Source: a virus
Lineage: Duplodnaviria; Heunggongvirae; Uroviricota; Caudoviricetes
Length of the DNA: 5,961 nucleotides
Strand: one strand, 5' to 3'
IMG/VR virus record: IMGVR_UViG_2657245112_000002
Location: 1 to 5,961 of that record
The translations under genes and the position numbers were made by a program. Numbering within the stretch: position 1 is the first letter of the stretch; every line of letters starts with the position of its first letter. Shown here one piece after another: positions 1 to 5,961 of the stretch. The notes beneath the pieces are model-generated. The model worked only from the letters and a program-made list of their open reading frames with translations, was not told the DNA's origin and ran no database searches.

Positions 1-8
1 CTCAACAA

Positions 9-156
9 TGAATTTTGTGATGCGGTGCCTGGTGCCTCCAGGTGACGTTAACCAGTTAACAATTAACGCCGGATACAGAGAATCCACCCATAACACTGTT
101 TTTGGTTTTAACTGTTCCGCGTGCGCTGAGCCGCATTCACCGCATCACAAAATTCA
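9..156. repeat. 19-bp perfect inverted repeat pair (9-27 and 138-156) flanking a 110-bp spacer with nested palindromes
   Basis: tgaattttgtgatgcggtg at 9-27 is the exact reverse complement of caccgcatcacaaaattca at 138-156. The spacer holds palindrome cctgg-tgcct-ccagg (28-42) and GTTAAC-ca-GTTAAC-aa-TTAAC (47-65). Function unknown. Confidence 0.8.
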
Positions 157-558
157 CTTTTAAAAAAGGGCGGCAGAGCAGTCACGGAGTAAAACTGATA
201 CCGCCAAATGTCACCAGAATATTGATAACAGAGGGCGTTGTAGCGGGGTTGTCACTTAAGCGTATGGTCAACCTGACAACCCGGTGTCCTCAACTGGGGA
301 AGGAATAACCCCGCCATACTTACCGCCGCGCCATTTCGCGGAGTGCCACAACCGGAAGCGCACGTTCGAAGAAATCTAACGACAAGCCTTCTAAGGGAAA
401 GAGCTTCGCCGTACGCTTTCGCGTTATGCCCTGACTTTTCAGGGAAATATCCTTTCAGTAAACTGTCAGTACCGGATTCTTATCCGTGTCCGGCGCACGA
501 CCACACGTGACAGCGTGTTGGTCTCCATTTTTAACCCAGAACCTCAATGGAGGATAAA

Positions 559-768
559 ATGCCAAACAAAAAAAGAAATCCGCTTATTGAAAAACAGATT
601 GAATGCCTGGTAAATCAACTCAGGCAATCAGGGTTATTAAAAACTCATTCAGAGTTGAGGCTCACAGAATCAGCATTCGACGATAAATTAAATAATGTCC
701 TTTATAATGGCATTATTGATTTTAATCGTTCTGTTGGTCGCCGCGGCCCTGCTGGTGTTTCCTTATAA
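559..768 (+). CDS. hypothetical small protein, 69 aa (73 aa if the ATG at 547 is used)
   Basis: ORF-track frame 547..768. GGAGGA at 549-554 lies 4 nt upstream of ATG 559; stop TAA 766-768. AT-rich like the neighbouring 216-aa gene. No motif recognised by eye. Confidence 0.4.
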   Translation: MPNKKRNPLIEKQIECLVNQLRQSGLLKTHSELRLTESAFDDKLNNVLYNGIIDFNRSVGRRGPAGVSL

Positions 769-1419
769 TTACCAGTCAATCCAGAGTGGACCGTGTTCAG
801 CGTAAATATAACTGTACACATCCAGATTATATTTGTGGTCTGTTAAGAACAGGCCGCAAATACATGCCGAAGCTTCCAGTGCAGCGGCTCTGTTACTGAA
901 TAACCATGTAGCAACATTCCAGCGTTTTTCTGCATCCCAGTCTTTCTCAAGGCCTGATACCATGAAGAAACCGTTAGTGTTGCCATCAAATAATTCTGTT
1001 TCCAAATTTTTAAGCAATGCCTGATGGACTCTTGCCAGGTATTCCGCCGGAATTTCGCCACGAATTCTGATGAGATTGTCATAAACAAACATGTTCCCCG
1101 CATATGGCGATTTTTCTTTCTTGTTTTTTAAACCAGCATCATGAGCAAACTGATCAATTTCTTCTTCCGTTGGTTTCGTATTGATGTTTTGCGCTGTCGT
1201 TTCTGCAATTTTATTTGCCACACTCTCTGAGTCGTGTTTATTTATAGACGCACAGAAATACAATCCGGTAAACGCATCGCGCACATTACGAGCCATATTA
1301 TCAGTGTCTTTTTTCGTTACCGATTCCAATTCAAGTTCGTTCAGACGATGACGAAGTGTGTGTGCTGCAATCTCCTGGATTGAAGGAGGTAAATCTTTAA
1401 ATTCCATCGTCAACCTCAT
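769..1419 (-). CDS. hypothetical protein, 216 aa (212 aa from ATG 1407); unknown function, candidate prophage cargo/defence protein
   Basis: Longest ORF on the minus strand here. ATG 1419..1417 overlaps the TAA of the upstream small gene (TAATG); alternative ATG 1407..1405 is preceded by GAGG with a 6-nt spacer. Sampled stretches are about 35-40% GC versus about 60% in a sampled stretch of the DnaC-like gene. Hydrophilic; no catalytic motif recognised by eye. Confidence 0.75.
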   Translation of the reverse strand: MRLTMEFKDLPPSIQEIAAHTLRHRLNELELESVTKKDTDNMARNVRDAFTGLYFCASINKHDSESVANKIAETTAQNINTKPTEEEIDQFAHDAGLKNKKEKSPYAGNMFVYDNLIRIRGEIPAEYLARVHQALLKNLETELFDGNTNGFFMVSGLEKDWDAEKRWNVATWLFSNRAAALEASACICGLFLTDHKYNLDVYSYIYAEHGPLWIDW

Positions 1420-1571
1420 TAGTCGGAGTTTCTTGCTAACCAGCGATGCGCGCCAGCTTCGGTTTTAAACGATTTGCTTTTGGTATACGTCATGGCGGTG
1501 AATGTGCCGTCCTGATTGGGAAACACGCCACATACCAGAGATTCGTTGTTGCCAAGATCGATAGTATCCAT
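1419..1571 (-). CDS. small prophage protein, 50 aa, YdaF/DUF1391-like (family assignment from memory)
   Basis: Below the ORF-track size cutoff; found by manual translation: MDTIDLGNNESLVCGVFPNQDGTFTAMTYTKSKSFKTEAGAHRWLARNSD. ATG 1571..1569 is preceded by GAGG with a 5-nt spacer; stop TAA 1421..1419. Resembles the ~51-aa small proteins found near the repressor in E. coli Rac-like prophages. Confidence 0.55.
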   Translation of the reverse strand: MDTIDLGNNESLVCGVFPNQDGTFTAMTYTKSKSFKTEAGAHRWLARNSD

Positions 1572-1756
1572 GTTGACCTCATTTACCCTTAACGCCGGGT
1601 CGCGGAACTAAAAACCTGCTGCGCTGTTATACAAAGTGTTCCCGCCGTCATGTTCATACGCCTCGGGCTGGCTACTTAACCCCTGACCACTGCCGGGTAA
1701 CTCGAAGTATTGCCCTGCGTTCTGTTGAATGGGGTGGGTTGGTGAAACAAGGATGC

Positions 1757-1794
1757 ACTTTTAAAGTTATTATGTCAACACTTATAAAGTTAGG
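1757..1794. promoter_or_regulatory. putative left operator/promoter: two operator-like palindromes flanking a perfect TTGACA on the minus strand
   Basis: ACTTTtAAAGT at 1758-1768 is identical to the 11-mer at 2822-2832 in the repressor/cro intergenic region. A one-mismatch copy ACTTAtAAAGT lies at 1782-1792. Minus-strand TTGACA at 1778..1773 sits between them; the matching -10 is weak (CATCCT). Confidence 0.4.
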
Positions 1795-1802
1795 TTGTGA
1801 GC

Positions 1803-1829
1803 AACAAAAACCGCCTCGAGATGAGACGG
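1803..1829 (-). terminator. intrinsic terminator downstream of the ParE-like toxin gene
   Basis: Minus-strand RNA CCGUCUC-AUCUC-GAGGCGG forms a 7-bp stem (one G-U pair) with a 5-nt loop, followed by UUUUUGUUG. The hairpin begins 13 nt after the toxin stop codon. Confidence 0.5.
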
Positions 1830-1842
1830 CCCTGTGAAAGGG

Positions 1843-2130
1843 TTAGTTCTGCTTGGGGAATTGGCGTCTGGCGTGTACTACACTCACGATCTCAATGCTT
1901 AAAGTGGCTACACGGTAAAGAATTATATAGTTAGGGTGAGCTACAATCTCACGCAAGCCAGGTACTCTGTCGCTTGGTGGGTATAAATACGGGTGTTCGG
2001 ATAACGGCAGCACACACCCCCTTAATCGCTGCCATAAGCGTTCTGCCGCATCTATGTCGAAACGAGCAATATAACTAGTTATATCATCTAGGTCGGTATC
2101 TGCGCTTTCAAGCCATAACACGGGTAACAT
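1843..2130 (-). CDS. parE2: ParE/RelE-superfamily type II toxin, 95 aa (ParE2-like)
   Basis: Sequence pattern typical of ParE toxins (…DLDDITSYIA…LREIVAHPNYIILYRV…IEIVSVVHARR). Start ATG 2130 lies 3 nt after the antitoxin stop, with GGAG inside the antitoxin 3' end. Symbol assigned from locus architecture, not exact sequence recall. Confidence 0.85.
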   Translation of the reverse strand: MLPVLWLESADTDLDDITSYIARFDIDAAERLWQRLRGCVLPLSEHPYLYPPSDRVPGLREIVAHPNYIILYRVATLSIEIVSVVHARRQFPKQN

Positions 2131-2133
2131 TTA

Positions 2134-2322
2134 CTACTTACTCCGTTCCTTGCGCATTTTAGCAAAGCGTTCTGCCATTCTGCGCTCAACCTCGTCATGG
2201 GGAATTGCTGGGCGCGGATTTGCAAGGCTCGCTGCTACTTTCGCACGCAGCCATTCGTTGTAACTGTTTTCTTGTTCAATGGTTTCGAACTCAGAAACCA
2301 TTGGTGAAAGGGCCGTATTCAT
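2134..2322 (-). CDS. paaA2: small antitoxin, 62 aa (PaaA2-like partner of ParE)
   Basis: The ORF track extends this frame to 2385, overlapping the repressor. The internal ATG at 2322..2320 is preferred: GGAGG lies 7 nt upstream and the repressor stop is at 2352-2354. Small, charged, immediately upstream of the toxin. Confidence 0.7.
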   Translation of the reverse strand: MNTALSPMVSEFETIEQENSYNEWLRAKVAASLANPRPAIPHDEVERRMAERFAKMRKERSK

Positions 2323-2351
2323 GGCACACCTCCGTCTGTGTATGGTGGTCA

Positions 2352-2759
2352 TTATGCTCGATGCCCTTTCCGGGCAGCGAGCCATCTTTCAATTGTGCGC
2401 TCCATTAACTCTTTTTTGTCTTTCATCTCCTGAAGCATTTGTCCCTGTTCTTCCTCTGGGAATGCACCAAATGTCTGAAGTAGCTCTCTTTGCTTCGGAC
2501 CTATTTTCATTGTGTCAGGTACCACAATCTGTTCGTCCTCACTTGGTGGCAACATAAACCAATATGGAGGGAATCCTGTTACTTCAGAAAGTTTATCAAG
2601 ATTAGCCATTGATGGGCTTGTGATGCCATGAACCCACTTTTGGACCGATTGTTGGGCAACACCTATTCTGCGGGCTAGTTCTGCTTGCTTAAGCCCTGTT
2701 TTTTCCAGCACCAGTTTTATCCGGTACGTGGTTATTTCAAGAGTGGTCATTCGCTTCAT
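2352..2759 (-). CDS. paaR2: XRE-family HTH transcriptional repressor, 135 aa (CI-like prophage repressor and TA regulator, PaaR2-like); no S24 peptidase domain
   Basis: N-terminal HTH signature (…LKQAELARRIGVAQQSVQKWVHGITSPSMANLDKLSEVTG…). The ~60-aa helical C-terminal tail is too short for a LexA-type autocleavage domain. Divergent from the Cro-like gene, first gene of the repressor-antitoxin-toxin operon. Confidence 0.8.
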   Translation of the reverse strand: MKRMTTLEITTYRIKLVLEKTGLKQAELARRIGVAQQSVQKWVHGITSPSMANLDKLSEVTGFPPYWFMLPPSEDEQIVVPDTMKIGPKQRELLQTFGAFPEEEQGQMLQEMKDKKELMERTIERWLAARKGHRA

Positions 2760-2866
2760 GCATTCATTTTACACAAAAAAAGTGTAGCCAGCACAATCAG
2801 CTTGAAAGTGTTGATAGTGTAACTTTTAAAGTGTATAAGTGGTGTCGATTGATTGGAGTTAGCGAT
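2760..2866. promoter_or_regulatory. divergent promoter/operator region between repressor and Cro-like gene (right operator equivalent)
   Basis: Rightward promoter candidate TTGATA (2811-2816), 17-nt spacer, TATAAG (2834-2839), then GGAG 2855-2858 and ATG 2867. Palindrome ACTTTtAAAGT (2822-2832) lies in the spacer; AAGTG-type half-sites recur at 2806-2810, 2829-2833 and 2838-2842. Leftward candidate: -10 TAAAAT (minus, plus coordinates 2771..2766) only 6 nt before the repressor ATG. Confidence 0.5.
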
Positions 2867-3145
2867 ATGCATAAATGTTTAAAAAATAAAATTCGCCAAA
2901 TAGGGTTATCCCAAGCGGGTGTTGCTCGCTTGATTGGGTTGCCACAGCAGGTTGTATGTCGATGGGTTAATGGGCAACAGGTCCCTGCATCAAGGGTTTT
3001 ACAACTATGTGAGATTATGGCGTGGACTGTCACCCCCCACGAGCTCCGACCAGATATTTACCCTAACCCAACCGATGGCCTGCCTTGTGGACGTAAGAGT
3101 ACAGCGAATGAATTACTGGCGGTGAACAATGAAAATCACACCTGA
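2867..3145 (+). CDS. ydaS: Cro/YdaS-like HTH DNA-binding protein, 92 aa
   Basis: ORF-track frame 2831..3145 starts at GTG. ATG 2867 is preferred because GGAG at 2855-2858 precedes it. HTH signature (…IGLSQAGVARLIGLPQQVVCRWVNGQQVPASR…). Divergent from the repressor. Symbol by position and family, not exact recall. Confidence 0.7.
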   Translation: MHKCLKNKIRQIGLSQAGVARLIGLPQQVVCRWVNGQQVPASRVLQLCEIMAWTVTPHELRPDIYPNPTDGLPCGRKSTANELLAVNNENHT

Positions 3146-3650
3146 ACAGGTTTGCGAGGCTCTGGATGCCTGGGTATGCAGACCAGGAATGACGCAGGAG
3201 CAGGCGACGATATTAATTACTGAAGCCTTCTGGGCTCTACAGGAACGCCCGAACATCGATGTTCAGCGTGTCACGCTTGATGATGGCGGGGTTGATCAGC
3301 GTGCGCTTGGCGTTAACCGGGTGAAGATATTCGAACGCTGGAAGGCTATCGACACCAGGGATAAGCGTGAAAAATTCACGGCGCTGATTCCGGCAATTAT
3401 GGAGGCTATCCGGATTAGTGATTTCAGGTTGTACCGCGAAATTACTGACGGAAAAAGCATTACGTACATGATTGCCGGGTTAAACAAAGAATATGGCGAT
3501 GTGGTGGAGTCCGGGCTGCTTTTTGCAGATCCAGCTGTTGTGGAACGTGAGACAGACGAGCTTATAGAAAAAGCAATCGCTTTCAAGCGTGCCTATCGTC
3601 ACCAGTACCAACAAAAAGCCGGATGGAATTATGAGCCTTCTTTTTGCTGA
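3129..3650 (+). CDS. ydaT: YdaT-like protein, 173 aa (proposed CII functional analogue)
   Basis: Overlaps the Cro-like gene 3' end by 17 nt. Occupies the cII position between the Cro-like and O-like genes, as in Rac/CP-933P-type prophages. Assignment is by position and size, not exact sequence recall. Confidence 0.6.
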   Translation: MKITPEQVCEALDAWVCRPGMTQEQATILITEAFWALQERPNIDVQRVTLDDGGVDQRALGVNRVKIFERWKAIDTRDKREKFTALIPAIMEAIRISDFRLYREITDGKSITYMIAGLNKEYGDVVESGLLFADPAVVERETDELIEKAIAFKRAYRHQYQQKAGWNYEPSFC

Positions 3651-4608
3651 ACGCCCGCTGGTTATAAACACACAGCTGGCGATGAAGATTGGTTTAAACG
3701 AAGCCATTGTGTTGCAGCAACTGCATTACTGGTTGAGGGATACCAGTTCCGGCATGGAATGTGATGGCGTTCGCTGGATTTACAACACAACGGAACAATG
3801 GCTGGAACAGTTTCCGTTCTGGTCAGAGTCAACGTTAAAGCGTGCGTTTGCAAGTCTGAAAGCGCTGGGGCTTTTGCGTAGCGAAAAGCTCAATAAATCG
3901 AAGCGTGATATGACTAATTTTTACACAATTAACTACGATAGCGCGCTTTTAGATGATGGCAAAGTGAACGAATCCATCGGGTCAAAATGCGCCACTCCAT
4001 CAGGTCAAAATGACACGATGGAAGAGGTCAAAATGAAACGTTCCATTGGTTCAAAACGGCCCAATGTCATCAGGTCAAAATGGCCCGATGATCCTACAGA
4101 GAATACAACAGAGAATACAACAGAGAATACAACAGAGAATAAAAAACTCTCTTGTCCGGACGCTTCGCAACCGGACGAGTTGACGGCTGAACAGGCGTTT
4201 TTAACCCGCCATCCTGATGCTGTTGTGTTCAGCGTGAAAAAACGCCAGTGGGGAACCCGGGAGGATTTGACATGTGCGCAGTGGATCTGGGGGCGGGTTG
4301 TAAACCTGTACGAACAGGCTGCCAGCGACGATGGAGAGATCACGCGACCGAAAGAGCCCAACTGGACGGCGTGGGCCAATGACGTGCGCACAATGCGGAT
4401 GCTGGATGGAAGAAGTCACAGACAAATTTGCGAAATGTTCAGCCGGGCACAACGGGATCCGTTCTGGATAAAAAACATCAAGAGCCCGGAAAAACTCCGT
4501 GAGAAATGGGATGAACTGGTTATTCGACTGTGGCGTGGTCCCGCGCAGCGTTGCGTGAATCATATTTCTGAACCGGATACCGAAATTCCGCCGGGTTTCA
4601 GGGGGTAG
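3631..4608 (+). CDS. replication initiator, lambda O-like architecture, 325 aa from ATG 3631 (339 aa from GTG 3589)
   Basis: Lies immediately upstream of the DnaC-like loader. Contains tandem DNA repeats in its central linker (…TENTTENTTENTTEN…), as oriLambda lies inside gene O. Start ATG 3631 overlaps the YdaT-like gene end by 20 nt. Stop TAG 4606-4608. Confidence 0.8.
   Translation: MSLLFAERPLVINTQLAMKIGLNEAIVLQQLHYWLRDTSSGMECDGVRWIYNTTEQWLEQFPFWSESTLKRAFASLKALGLLRSEKLNKSKRDMTNFYTINYDSALLDDGKVNESIGSKCATPSGQNDTMEEVKMKRSIGSKRPNVIRSKWPDDPTENTTENTTENTTENKKLSCPDASQPDELTAEQAFLTRHPDAVVFSVKKRQWGTREDLTCAQWIWGRVVNLYEQAASDDGEITRPKEPNWTAWANDVRTMRMLDGRSHRQICEMFSRAQRDPFWIKNIKSPEKLREKWDELVIRLWRGPAQRCVNHISEPDTEIPPGFRG
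3978..4093. repeat. five direct iterons, 23-24 bp period, core GGTCAAAATG (putative origin initiator-binding sites)
   Basis: Core at 3980-3989, 4003-4012, 4026-4035 and 4073-4082, with degenerate copy GGTTCAAAACG at 4048-4058. Units also share CCAT/TCAT at their 3' ends. Confidence 0.6.
4096..4143. repeat. four tandem 12-bp repeats ACAGAGAATACA (three perfect, fourth ACAGAGAATAAA), A-rich; putative unwinding element
   Basis: Directly visible perfect tandem repeat. It encodes the TENT repeats of the O-like protein and is followed by aaaaaa. Confidence 0.9.
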
Positions 4609-4614
4609 CGCATC

Positions 4615-5355
4615 ATGAAAAACATTACGTCAGGTGGTGTTCTGGCAAGAGTCAGCAGATTTGTGCCGCAGGATGCAATCCCTCCGTACCGTACGGTGAC
4701 GGAGTGGCGGGAATGGCAGCTTGCTGAAGGGCGTAAGCGAAGCGAGGAGGTTAATCGTCTGAATCATCAGACGCGGGTTGAAAAAATCATTAACCGCTCC
4801 GGTATCCAGCCGCTTCACCGGAAGTGTACGTTCGGTAACTACCGGGTGCAGAACGATGGTCAGCGCCATGCCCTGAGTCAGGCGAAATCCATTGCGGCAG
4901 AGCTGGAAGGCGGCTGTACGAATTTTGTGTTCAGTGGCCGGCCTGGCACAGGAAAAAACCACCTGGCGGCGGCTATTGGCAACCACCTTCTGGCGAAAGG
5001 TCGCAGTGTGATTGTGATAACAGTGGCGGATGTGATGCTGGCGTTACATGGCAGCTACGACAACAAAAACTCGGGCGAAAAATTTTTGCAGGGATTGTGT
5101 GGCGTTGACCTGCTGGTACTGGATGAAATTGGCATGCAACGGGATACGCGTAATGAGCAGGTCACGCTGAATCAGATTGTTGACCGCAGAACGGCATCGT
5201 TACTCAGTGTGGGGATGCTGACAAATCTTAACCATGCAGCGATGAATACACTTCTCGGCGAGCGGGTGATGGACCGCATGTCCATGAACGGTGGTCGCTG
5301 GGTGACGTTTAACTGGGAGAGCTGGCGTCCGAACGTCAGCCAGCACAGGAACTGA
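4615..5355 (+). CDS. DnaC-like replicative helicase loader (AAA+ ATPase), 246 aa
   Basis: Walker [18 protein letters not shown] and Walker B LLVLDEIG. Collinear similarity to E. coli DnaC as recalled (…NRSGI.PLH..C.F.NYRV…GMLTN.N…[10 protein letters not shown]…). GGGGG at 4601-4605 precedes ATG 4615 and overlaps the O-like stop. Confidence 0.9.
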
Positions 5356-5384
5356 GAAGTAATTTTTATCCGGAGGAAGTTTTA

Positions 5385-5961
5385 ATGGAAACCGTATTGC
5401 ATGCACTGAAAGCGATGGGTAAAGCCAATTCTGTTGAACTGGCGGCGCGGCTTGATATCAGCCGTGAAGAAGTTCTCAACGAACTGTGGGAACTCAAAAA
5501 AAATGGCGTTGTTGATAAAACGGGTCACACCTGGTTTCTGGCTGGTGAAGGTGAATCCGGGGTAACCGAAGAGCAGCCAGCACAGTCTGAAGTACCGGAT
5601 GTGCTGACCGGGGAGGTCGAACAAAAAGTTACCGCGGACATGATGATTGAGTTTATCTGTCAGGATGGGGCTAAAACGTGTGAGGAACTGGCGGATAAGT
5701 TCGGTGTTAGCATTCGCAAGGTTGCTTCCACGTTGGCGGTCGTAACAGCAACGGGGCGCCTGGCACGCGTAAATCAGAACGGTAAATTTCGTTACTGCAT
5801 ACCGGGCGCTGATTTACCGGCAGAGCCGGAAGCTGCATCCGTAGCGGAAACCGATGGTAAAGCCTTTCCTCAGCCAACAGGTGTTGCGTTACCAGTCCAG
5901 GAAACGACGACACAGGAAGAAATAAAAACTGAAAGTGTGGCGGTCACAGTGCAGTCACAGC
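5385..5961 (+). CDS. hypothetical protein, partial (3' end beyond window), two tandem winged-helix-like repeats
   Basis: Not in the ORF track because it runs off the window. ATG 5385 is preceded by GGAGGA (5372-5377); no in-frame stop to 5961. Translation begins [43 protein letters not shown]…; a second similar segment reads [42 protein letters not shown]. Confidence 0.6.

Follow-up and report, generated by a model that had tools for sequence, protein, structure and literature searches.

We analysed a 5,961-bp stretch of phage DNA (hereafter the window; positions 1 to 5,961 of IMG/VR record IMGVR_UViG_2657245112_000002), in which positions 3931–4180 are very probably, judging from the sequence, the vegetative replication origin of a lambdoid (Qin/mEp460-type) Escherichia coli prophage. 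This ori-lambda-like element lies within its own initiator gene, which codes for an O-like protein with an N-terminal domain (N-domain), a linker, and a C-terminal domain (C-domain), and occupies the part that codes for the linker. It displays the hallmarks of a lambda-type origin: at least three dyad-symmetric iterons, a location in the linker, a promoter-distal A+T-rich segment with purine asymmetry, and DNA conserved beyond what the protein needs. An earlier note on this DNA had likened its architecture to oriLambda, and the likeness held for the iteron dyads, the position in the gene, the A+T-rich segment, an inverted repeat, the homology of the C-domain, and the adjoining loader gene.

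The iteron array consists of five 23-nt direct repeats with spacings of 23, 23, 23, and 24 (iterons 1–5, Table 1), whose cores begin at 3980, 4003, 4026, 4049, and 4073 and comprise four copies of GGTCAAAATG and one of GTTCAAAACG. These are all of the exact core matches in the window, and they fall on one strand within 103 bp. When up to one mismatch was allowed, the pattern GKTCAAAAYG matched the window 8 times (2.4 expected; none of 200 shuffles reached 8), and the self-similarity of the sequence at a shift of 23 gave z = 9.9. Preceding the five repeats, in register with the 23-bp period, is a degenerate copy (iteron 0), at whose position relatives carry a better copy, GAGGTCAAAGTGACC. Thus the earlier claim of five iterons at a 23–24-bp period was confirmed, although their edges had been placed about 3 bp off each and the sixth iteron and the inverted repeat had been missed. 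The degree of self-complementarity seen in iterons 2 and 5 is reached by 0.2% of the 23-mers in the window, and iteron 2 is nearly invariant among relatives. By analogy with the lambda iterons, which share this design, the dyad symmetry has the look of a dimer-binding site. The iteron DNA encodes IGSKC, SGQND, EVKMK, IGSKR, and IRSKW, using all three reading frames; since a 23-bp period places successive iterons in different frames, the repeat exists at the level of DNA only, and not of peptide. Tandem-repeat and core-pattern searches returned no second repeat cluster elsewhere in the window, and no DnaA box (TTATCCACA, up to one mismatch) was found within the origin, the nearest being at 4463.

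Following the iterons, Tandem Repeats Finder reported a unit ACAGAGAATACA with period 12, 3.8 copies, and 100% matches at 4096–4141, in agreement with the four tandem 12-bp repeats that the earlier note had placed at 4096–4143. The individual copies occupy 4096–4107, 4108–4119, 4120–4131, and 4132–4143, the last ending in AAA instead of ACA, and the repeat region translates to DDPTENTTENTTENTTENKK. ACAGAGAWTA occurs 6 times in the window against 0.5 expected. The array has a GC content of 0.31 and its + strand is 77% purine and 60% A; a 40-bp segment that overlaps the 12-mers (4113–4153) forms a local minimum of duplex stability (z = 2.4). We presume that the 12-mers are the unwinding and loading element. 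Between the last iteron and the first 12-mer stands a single GATC (Dam site; 4090–4093), and the junction GATGATCYTACAGAG is kept in all enterobacterial relatives that were aligned.

Conservation extends over the whole element. In a codon alignment against 8 distant relatives (a Klebsiella phage and loci from Citrobacter, Raoultella, Enterobacter, Izhakiella, and Trabulsiella), the same codon was used at identical amino acids in 196/533 cases (0.37) for codons 1–100, in 315/378 (0.83) for codons 101–180, and in 89/231 (0.39) thereafter. Amino-acid identity in the middle zone was 0.57–0.79, not above that of the N-domain. This comparison points to purifying selection that acts on nucleotides and is confined to 3931–4170, a zone that is wider than the repeats first noted and includes iteron 0 and the inverted repeat. 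Two overlapping open reading frames (ORFs), 4005–4391 (minus) and 4046–4183 (plus), do not coincide with this zone. The inverted repeat could form a DNA hairpin of −8.9 kcal/mol (z = −2.2), and it is conserved in relatives, including two loci with other iterons (L017 and L020) and Lactobacillus phage mv4. In the latter (L036:1963–2035), four 12-mer copies precede GTCCGG...CCGGACGAG, so that the same inverted-repeat core occurs beside unrelated iterons in a phage of a Firmicute host. Folded as RNA, 3931–4180 gave z = −2.5 and −2.0, because the palindromic iterons form hairpins and not because of a dedicated structure; an Rfam scan of the window for an RNA element at the origin gave DicF alone, far away, and promoter and terminator scans found no more sites than in shuffled sequence.

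The 12-mer motif was followed through 116 non-redundant IMG/VR loci that encode the same N-domain, collected by a scan whose query sequences were ordered so as to reach diverse loci; with a different order, the IMG/VR scan returned near-identical E. coli relatives alone. The motif ACAGAGAnTAC, counted as exact copies of its core, was present 3′ of the iterons at least once in 101/116 loci and at least twice in 84/116, within 400 bp after the N-domain. In that zone the copies are always on the coding strand, with zero on the opposite strand, and elsewhere in the same loci 4 copies occur in 230 kb. The copies are spaced by 12 bp in 106 cases and by 11 bp in 20, and their consensus is ACAGAGAnTACw with a 9-base core, CAGAGAnTA. 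This core follows the iterons in phages of Staphylococcus, Bacillus, Lactobacillus, Pseudomonas (local GC 60%), and Erwinia, in a Bacillus chromosome, and in Deferribacterales genomes, and occurrence of the motif is independent of genome G+C between 25 and 70%. Phages of Vibrio, Flavobacterium, and Listeria, which are more distant, have degenerate versions; lambda lacks the motif, as do loci with a different N-domain. A 21–24-bp periodicity between the N-domain and the 12-mers is significant in 84/101 of the motif-bearing loci. The earlier reading of the array as an easily unwound A+T-rich segment is therefore correct as far as low GC content and the local stability minimum go, but falls short of a motif that is conserved across phyla, including phages of 60% G+C.

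Codon usage separates the DNA motif from the peptide that it encodes. When T-E-x-T peptides in the linker zone were picked blind to codons, the Thr codon was ACA in 99% of the units (30% elsewhere in the same genes; Fisher p = 3e-63) and the Glu codon was GAG in 97% (41% elsewhere in the same genes; p = 5e-46). The third codon is always NNT, with a middle base, hence amino acid (N, I, T, S), that varies. While 209/236 motif copies are in one codon phase, about a tenth lie in other frames, where the DNA is kept and RDY or QRI is encoded. The fixed silent positions, together with off-frame copies that retain the DNA, indicate that the motif is selected as DNA.

We judge the chances to be roughly even that the 12-mers are a strand-specific ACAGAGAnTACw signal, present two to four times at about one helical turn after the iterons and recognised sequence-specifically rather than merely melted, and that phage origins bearing this signal, together with a winged-helix initiator domain lacking a Pfam model (about 10,000 representatives of 50%-identity clusters, from Firmicutes to Proteobacteria), form a very large class not yet annotated. 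A candidate role of the motif is that the initiator or the loader captures one unwound strand. Alternatively, it is a candidate for a phased priming signal, its invariant CAG being CTG on the opposite strand; CTG is the trinucleotide recognised by E. coli primase. The cross-phylum motif is the part of these results that may be new: searches of the literature for the iteron and 12-mer sequences gave unrelated primer matches alone, and as older literature was thinly covered, an earlier description is possible.

Copy number of the 12-mers varies among related prophages, as the earlier note had anticipated, with 3, 4, 5, and 6 copies observed. Among 80 close IMG/VR relatives, 77 carry three 12-mers, of which the middle one has usually diverged (ATTACT), and a single relative carries five (at least three copies in 78/80); in the sampled E. 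coli genomes, almost all matches are 12 bp shorter than the window, corresponding to three copies. Within the lineage of the window, identical copies number 3 (strain SJ3), 4 (the window and strain 88-3493), or 6 (strain JNE141411). Since 12 bp equal four codons, copies can be gained or lost by slippage without breaking the gene. Three phage isolates (mEp460_ev081, HannyBb, and PhiR42_1) have a match to the entire gene at 87–88%, and direct inspection of the mEp460 sequence showed that the repeats are kept. Some E. coli homologues (P0023 and P0025; aligned to 3976–4068) are shorter by 31 residues, that is 93 bp or four iteron periods (23+23+23+24); this in-frame loss leaves one or two iterons, and such homologues may represent crippled origins in decaying prophages.

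The iterons vary together with the N-domain. Enterobacterial relatives whose N-domain is 57–75% identical have GGTCAAAATG-type iterons in the same place. More distant relatives have iterons of their own, namely GGACAAAATG in Staphylococcus phage 96, TGTCAAAATGA in Bacillus phage BMBtp2, GGGCAAtTTGCCC / GAGGGCAAtTTGCCC in Erwinia phage PEp14, TTGACCAGAA in Lactobacillus phage mv4, and 21-bp CAGTGCAGAATGACCAG units in Deferribacterales metagenome-assembled genomes (MAGs). In a Citrobacter locus (L017; Citrobacter sp. FP75, 3358–3640), an N-domain of 27% identity (E = 0.06) accompanies different 23-bp iterons, CCGCAAACnAGAnTGCGG, followed by 12-mers, an inverted repeat, and a C-domain that are the same as in the E. 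coli type; this arrangement suggests that recombination joined two parts at a point after the last iteron and before the 12-mers. Across these relatives the iteron sequence changes along with the N-domain. In the classical picture the N-terminal part of O sets origin specificity, and the swap in the Citrobacter locus fits that picture.

The initiator is identical to RefSeq WP_000054521.1, annotated as 'hypothetical protein', and the RefSeq start corresponds to window position 3631. It matched no family in Pfam or NCBIfam, and PHROGs alone named it ('replication initiation O-like'). An AlphaFold model built with 23 input sequences (mean predicted local distance difference test score, pLDDT, 57) laid out a winged-helix-like N-domain (residues 11–109), a disordered stretch (110–177), a helical C-domain (178–301), and a disordered tail. 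The residues with pLDDT < 50, 110–177, correspond to window 3958–4161, between the two folded domains, and match the repeats almost exactly, consistent with the earlier placement of the repeats in the central linker. Residues 149–298 align with lambda O residues 141–270 (38% identity, E = 7e-25). The designation O-like thus holds for the C-domain, which is homologous to lambda O, but the N-domain is outside the lambda O family: the protein gave no match to Phage_rep_O (PF04492) or any other Pfam model up to E = 10, when lambda O scored 5.7e-36 in the same search. By Foldseek against the Protein Data Bank (PDB), the N-domain matched best, though weakly (E about 0.05–0.07), to DNA binders of the winged-helix type, among them the iteron-binding N-terminal domain of staphylococcal plasmid RepA (4pql, 5kbj). 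We presume the N-domain to be the iteron binder; the C-domain is the presumed recruiter of the loader or helicase. The N-domain family counts 10,474 representatives of 50%-identity clusters at E ≤ 0.001 without a Pfam model. The domain is present twice in many of these matches, it forms part of fusion proteins of about 790 residues in Deferribacterales genomes, and proteins of Staphylococcus and Bacillus phages that contain it are annotated 'DnaD-like helicase loader'.

Table 1. Coordinates of the putative origin, the initiator domains, and neighbouring features in the 5,961-bp window.
Feature	Position	Strand	Basis or remark
Zone of DNA-level constraint, full origin extent by conservation	3931-4170	.	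Same-codon retention
Iteron 0, degenerate, GATGATGGCAAAGTGAACGAATC	3952-3974	+	In register with 23-bp period
Iteron 1, CATCGGGTCAAAATGCGCCACTC	3975-3997	+	Direct-repeat search
Iteron 2, CATCAGGTCAAAATGACACGATG	3998-4020	+	Dyad CATC-nn-GTCA-AAA-TGAC-nn-GATG, 16/23 self-complementary
Iteron 3, GAAGAGGTCAAAATGAAACGTTC	4021-4043	+	Direct-repeat search
Iteron 4, CATTGGTTCAAAACGGCCCAATG	4044-4066	+	14/23 self-complementary
Iteron 5, CATCAGGTCAAAATGGCCCGATG	4068-4090	+	16/23 self-complementary
Four tandem 12-mers, ACAGAGAATACA x3 + ACAGAGAATAAA	4096-4143	+	Tandem Repeats Finder
Inverted repeat CTTGTCCGG-N11-CCGGACGAG	4151-4179	.	Core GTCCGG 4154-4159, CCGGAC 4171-4176
O-like replication initiator gene, 325 aa	3631-4608	+	PHROG 391, E = 1e-90
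Predicted N-terminal winged-helix domain coding region, residues 11-109	3661-3957	+	AlphaFold H-H-E-E-H-H-E-E fold
C-terminal lambda-O-like domain coding region, residues 178-301	4162-4533	+	Lambda O alignment, AlphaFold
DnaT-like C-terminal tail GPAQRCVNHISEPDTEIPPGFRG	4537-4605	+	Extreme C-terminus of E. coli and related DnaT
DnaC-type helicase loader gene	4615-5355	+	NF009043 E = 8e-143; DnaC NF005931 E = 1e-90; PF01695 IstB_IS21; PHROG 50
CII-like/YdaT gene	3129-3650	+	PF06254; PHROG 163 'CII-like'; RefSeq
Cro/DicC-like gene	2867-3145	+	PF15943; RefSeq
DicA-like repressor gene	2352-2750	minus	Pfam, RefSeq
PaaA2 antitoxin gene	2134-2322	minus	Pfam, RefSeq
ParE toxin gene	1843-2130	minus	Pfam, RefSeq
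DicF antisense RNA	168-219	minus	Rfam RF00039, 77 bits

The analysis shows repeats with dyad symmetry, selection at the level of DNA, iterons that co-vary with the N-domain, and the arrangement of protein domains and neighbouring genes; from these we infer binding, opening, and loading in the following order. Rightward early transcription through the Cro-like, CII-like, O-like, and DnaC-like genes would make the initiator and cross the origin. The 23-bp iterons, five or six dyad-symmetric sites that each contain an A4 tract, would then be occupied by dimers of the N-domain in an O-some-like complex, and stress from this complex would open the adjacent 12-mer array. The opening would be stabilised by the initiator or the loader/helicase, probably through sequence-specific recognition of ACAGAGAnTACw on one strand. 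Lastly, the lambda-O-like C-domain and, perhaps, the DnaT-like tail would bring host DnaB with the phage DnaC-type loader, and DnaB would be loaded onto the opened strands.

Several points weigh against reading 3931–4180 as the origin. The segment at the 12-mers ranks eighth among the least stable 40-bp segments of the window, and an equally unstable segment, 3892–3932, flanks the iterons on the opposite side. The structural likeness of the N-domain to winged-helix proteins is weak and comes from a model of moderate confidence (mean pLDDT 57), and the N-terminal 110 residues have no detectable similarity to lambda O (BLASTP of the two N-domains produced no alignment). Mosaic recombination could inflate local nucleotide identity, but it would leave unexplained that silent positions are kept while amino acids change. 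The literature that we searched contained no experiments showing, for this sequence or a close relative, that the initiator binds, that the DNA unwinds, or that replication starts there, nor, in searches on Qin prophage replication and on origins in replisome-organiser genes that covered older work thinly, a description of this type of origin.

The same repeats admit other explanations. The iterons could be sites at which the initiator or another early protein is titrated or acts as a regulator (for autoregulation, to control copy number, or to shut out related phages), with initiation elsewhere, for instance in an A+T-rich intergenic region; more unstable A+T-rich segments do exist in the window (684–724, 1758–1798, and 2870–2910), and cloned lambda origin sequences are reported to inhibit related phages (PMC3349717, PMC4488673). 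Yet the window holds no other repeat cluster, and iterons, a phased motif array, and an inverted repeat adjoin in the initiator linker in hundreds of unrelated phage genomes, which is the arrangement of lambda-type origins, so we hold initiation elsewhere to be very unlikely. More improbable still, to the point of being barely credible, is that the repeats are selected as protein, with a linker peptide such as the T-E-N-T repeats binding a partner and the DNA conserved as a by-product. The T-E-x-T peptide is indeed widespread and most motif copies share one codon phase, but the iterons are read in three frames, the amino-acid-changing position of T-E-x-T varies where silent third positions are fixed, off-frame copies retain the DNA motif, and the linker is predicted to be disordered.

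For the 12-bp array, the explanation that has most to recommend it among these alternatives, and that we nonetheless find unlikely, is an A+T-rich unwinding element of a generic kind, or else a linker repeat that is neutral and prone to slippage, in either case without a function for the exact sequence. It would account for the low GC content and the local stability minimum; a copy number ranging from 3 to 6 suggests tolerance, and the A+T-rich tract of lambda is dispensable for the binding of O to its iterons (PMC7466680). What it leaves unexplained is the recurrence of the CAGAGAnTA core at 11–12-bp spacing, always on the coding strand and irrespective of G+C, in the 101 motif-bearing loci, the fixation of ACA and GAG at silent positions, the copies in other frames that keep the DNA and not the peptide (TRDYTET or IPETTQRIPETT), and the retention of at least three copies in nearly all close relatives. 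We favour an ori-lambda-like origin in which the sequence of the 12-mers probably matters.

In the lambda model, iterons and an A+T-rich tract lie in the middle of O (PMC7466680), and the unwinding region is purine-asymmetric and bound as single strands by O and P (PMC7466680, PMC5043065). The window resembles ori-lambda in its dyad-symmetric iterons with a central A-tract (lambda, ATCCCTCAAAACGAGGGA; window, CATCAGGTCAAAATGACACGATG; TCAAAAYG is central in both), in the span of the repeats within the gene (33–52% from iteron 0 to the last 12-mer, and 39–53% in lambda, measured from its first iteron through its A+T-rich tract), in the purine-asymmetric A+T-rich tract followed by an inverted repeat, in the C-domain (38% identical), and in its place behind cro- and cII-like genes in the rightward early operon. 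It differs in having five to six iterons of 23 bp, whereas lambda has four of 18–19 bp; in an unwinding segment of tandem 12-mers with a conserved motif in place of an irregular A-rich tract; and in an N-domain that is not Phage_rep_O, a loader of DnaC type rather than P, and a DnaT-like tail on the initiator. The Shiga toxin (Stx) phages 933W and P27 have six iterons; iteron number varies among lambdoid origins, and extra iterons lengthen the O linker (PMC7466680). The 93-bp, four-iteron loss in some E. coli relatives of the window is comparable, although 933W and P27 have lambda-type iterons, a lambda-type O N-domain, and a P-type loader.

The 12-mers resemble the 13-mer unwinding elements of oriC and RK2 oriV in being short tandem repeats beside initiator sites; there the precise sequence counts, and one strand is captured by the initiator (PMC5043065). 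DnaA-trios, and the binding of TrfA to single-stranded 13-mers, are known cases in which repeats of this kind are recognised. The 12-mers differ from those of oriC and RK2 in the motif itself, ACAGAGAnTACw, and in lacking a DnaA box near the origin, a feature that also sets the window apart from iteron plasmids of the RK2, F, and pSC101 type. Closest in the initiator's fold are the RepA_N plasmid initiators (pSK41 and pTZ2162; PDB 4pql and 5kbj), in which a winged-helix N-domain binds iterons in or near its own gene; this match is weak (E = 0.07, template modelling (TM) score about 0.5 normalised to the target), and no sequence similarity was detected. Modules of O with a DnaC-type loader are known from the lambdoid prophages Sp4, Sp10, and Sp12 of O157 Sakai (PMC2669165); they share the gene pair of an O-like initiator followed by a DnaC-type loader, as compared by protein classification, their origin being undescribed in that report.

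The initiator gene has no origin marked in RefSeq, even though similar DNA occurs in 2,461/5,426 complete E. coli genomes and covers at least 80% of the gene in 1,749. In many temperate phages, with Gram-negative as well as Gram-positive hosts, the origin could be located by a simple rule: the N-domain, followed by 21–24-bp iterons and then by ACAGAGAnTAC repeats. If the 12-mer motif is truly a recognition element, these phages would offer a natural system with thousands of variants for testing whether and how the sequence of the unwinding element contributes to opening, which a 2016 review described as still an open question (PMC5043065). Prophages of the window lineage could moreover be typed by the 12-bp array, a short in-frame repeat of variable number.

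The initiator ends in a DnaT-like tail. Its last 23 residues, GPAQRCVNHISEPDTEIPPGFRG, match the extreme C-terminus of DnaT (PDB 6aep, 2ru8, and 9zbt; E = 0.007–0.03) and align with positions 158–179 of 179 in NF002770; the similarity is confined to these last 22–23 residues and does not extend to full-length DnaT (17 bits against the NF002770 cut-off of 201 bits). A sequence search of solved structures with the initiator returned this DnaT match alone. The label 'Primosomal protein I' on the mEp460 homologue is probably due to the tail. Other relatives have similar tails (IPAGFRG, VPAGFRS, and IPEGFRG), and a gene end of about 60 bp is 95–97% identical in otherwise unrelated O/replisome-organiser genes of the Stx phages POCJ13, 75/02 Stx, and PhiR5_2. 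The tail has the look of a short, mobile motif sitting immediately ahead of the loader gene, recalling the host dnaT-dnaC operon; a paper on the preprimosome makes no statement on the role of the extreme C-terminus of DnaT. The gene downstream of the initiator is of DnaC type (NF009043, PF01695) and not a lambda P-type loader. In the commoner relatives with an 87–88% match to the initiator (phage mEp460_ev081, L001:3042–4449; and L003, a Qin-like prophage in an assembly labelled DH5alpha), a DUF977/'LygF' gene comes next and no DnaC-type gene follows, so those phages would need the host loader.

The window is 99.9% identical to a prophage in E. coli strain 07_3636, which contains int, xis, exo, dicB, a Q-type antiterminator, lysis genes, terminase, portal, and a lambda-like head. 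Rfam, Pfam, and RefSeq identified the elements of a Qin/Kim-type (DicA-DicC) early region, namely DicF RNA, leftward dicB, a DicA-like repressor, a DicC/YdaS-like Cro, and a YdaT-family CII-like gene, and DicF RNA places the window in the dicB-dicF early-left operon of this type. The rightward operon runs from the Cro/DicC-like gene through the CII-like/YdaT gene and the O-like initiator to the DnaC-type loader, and transcription via the Cro-like and CII-like genes would pass the origin. A link to oriJ of the Rac prophage, prompted by the YdaS/YdaT matches, was dropped on the Qin/DicA-type context of the window.

Three contigs with genes 88–98% identical to the E. coli prophage gene (L009, L012, and L026) are filed under MAGs named Bacillota, Veillonella parvula, and Collinsella; these host labels are most likely binning errors. 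The ParE and PaaA2 genes lie directly downstream of the DicA-like repressor gene in the same orientation (1843–2750, minus), a layout that resembles the three-gene paaR2-paaA2-parE2 system; the pair is missing in related prophages that carry the same origin.

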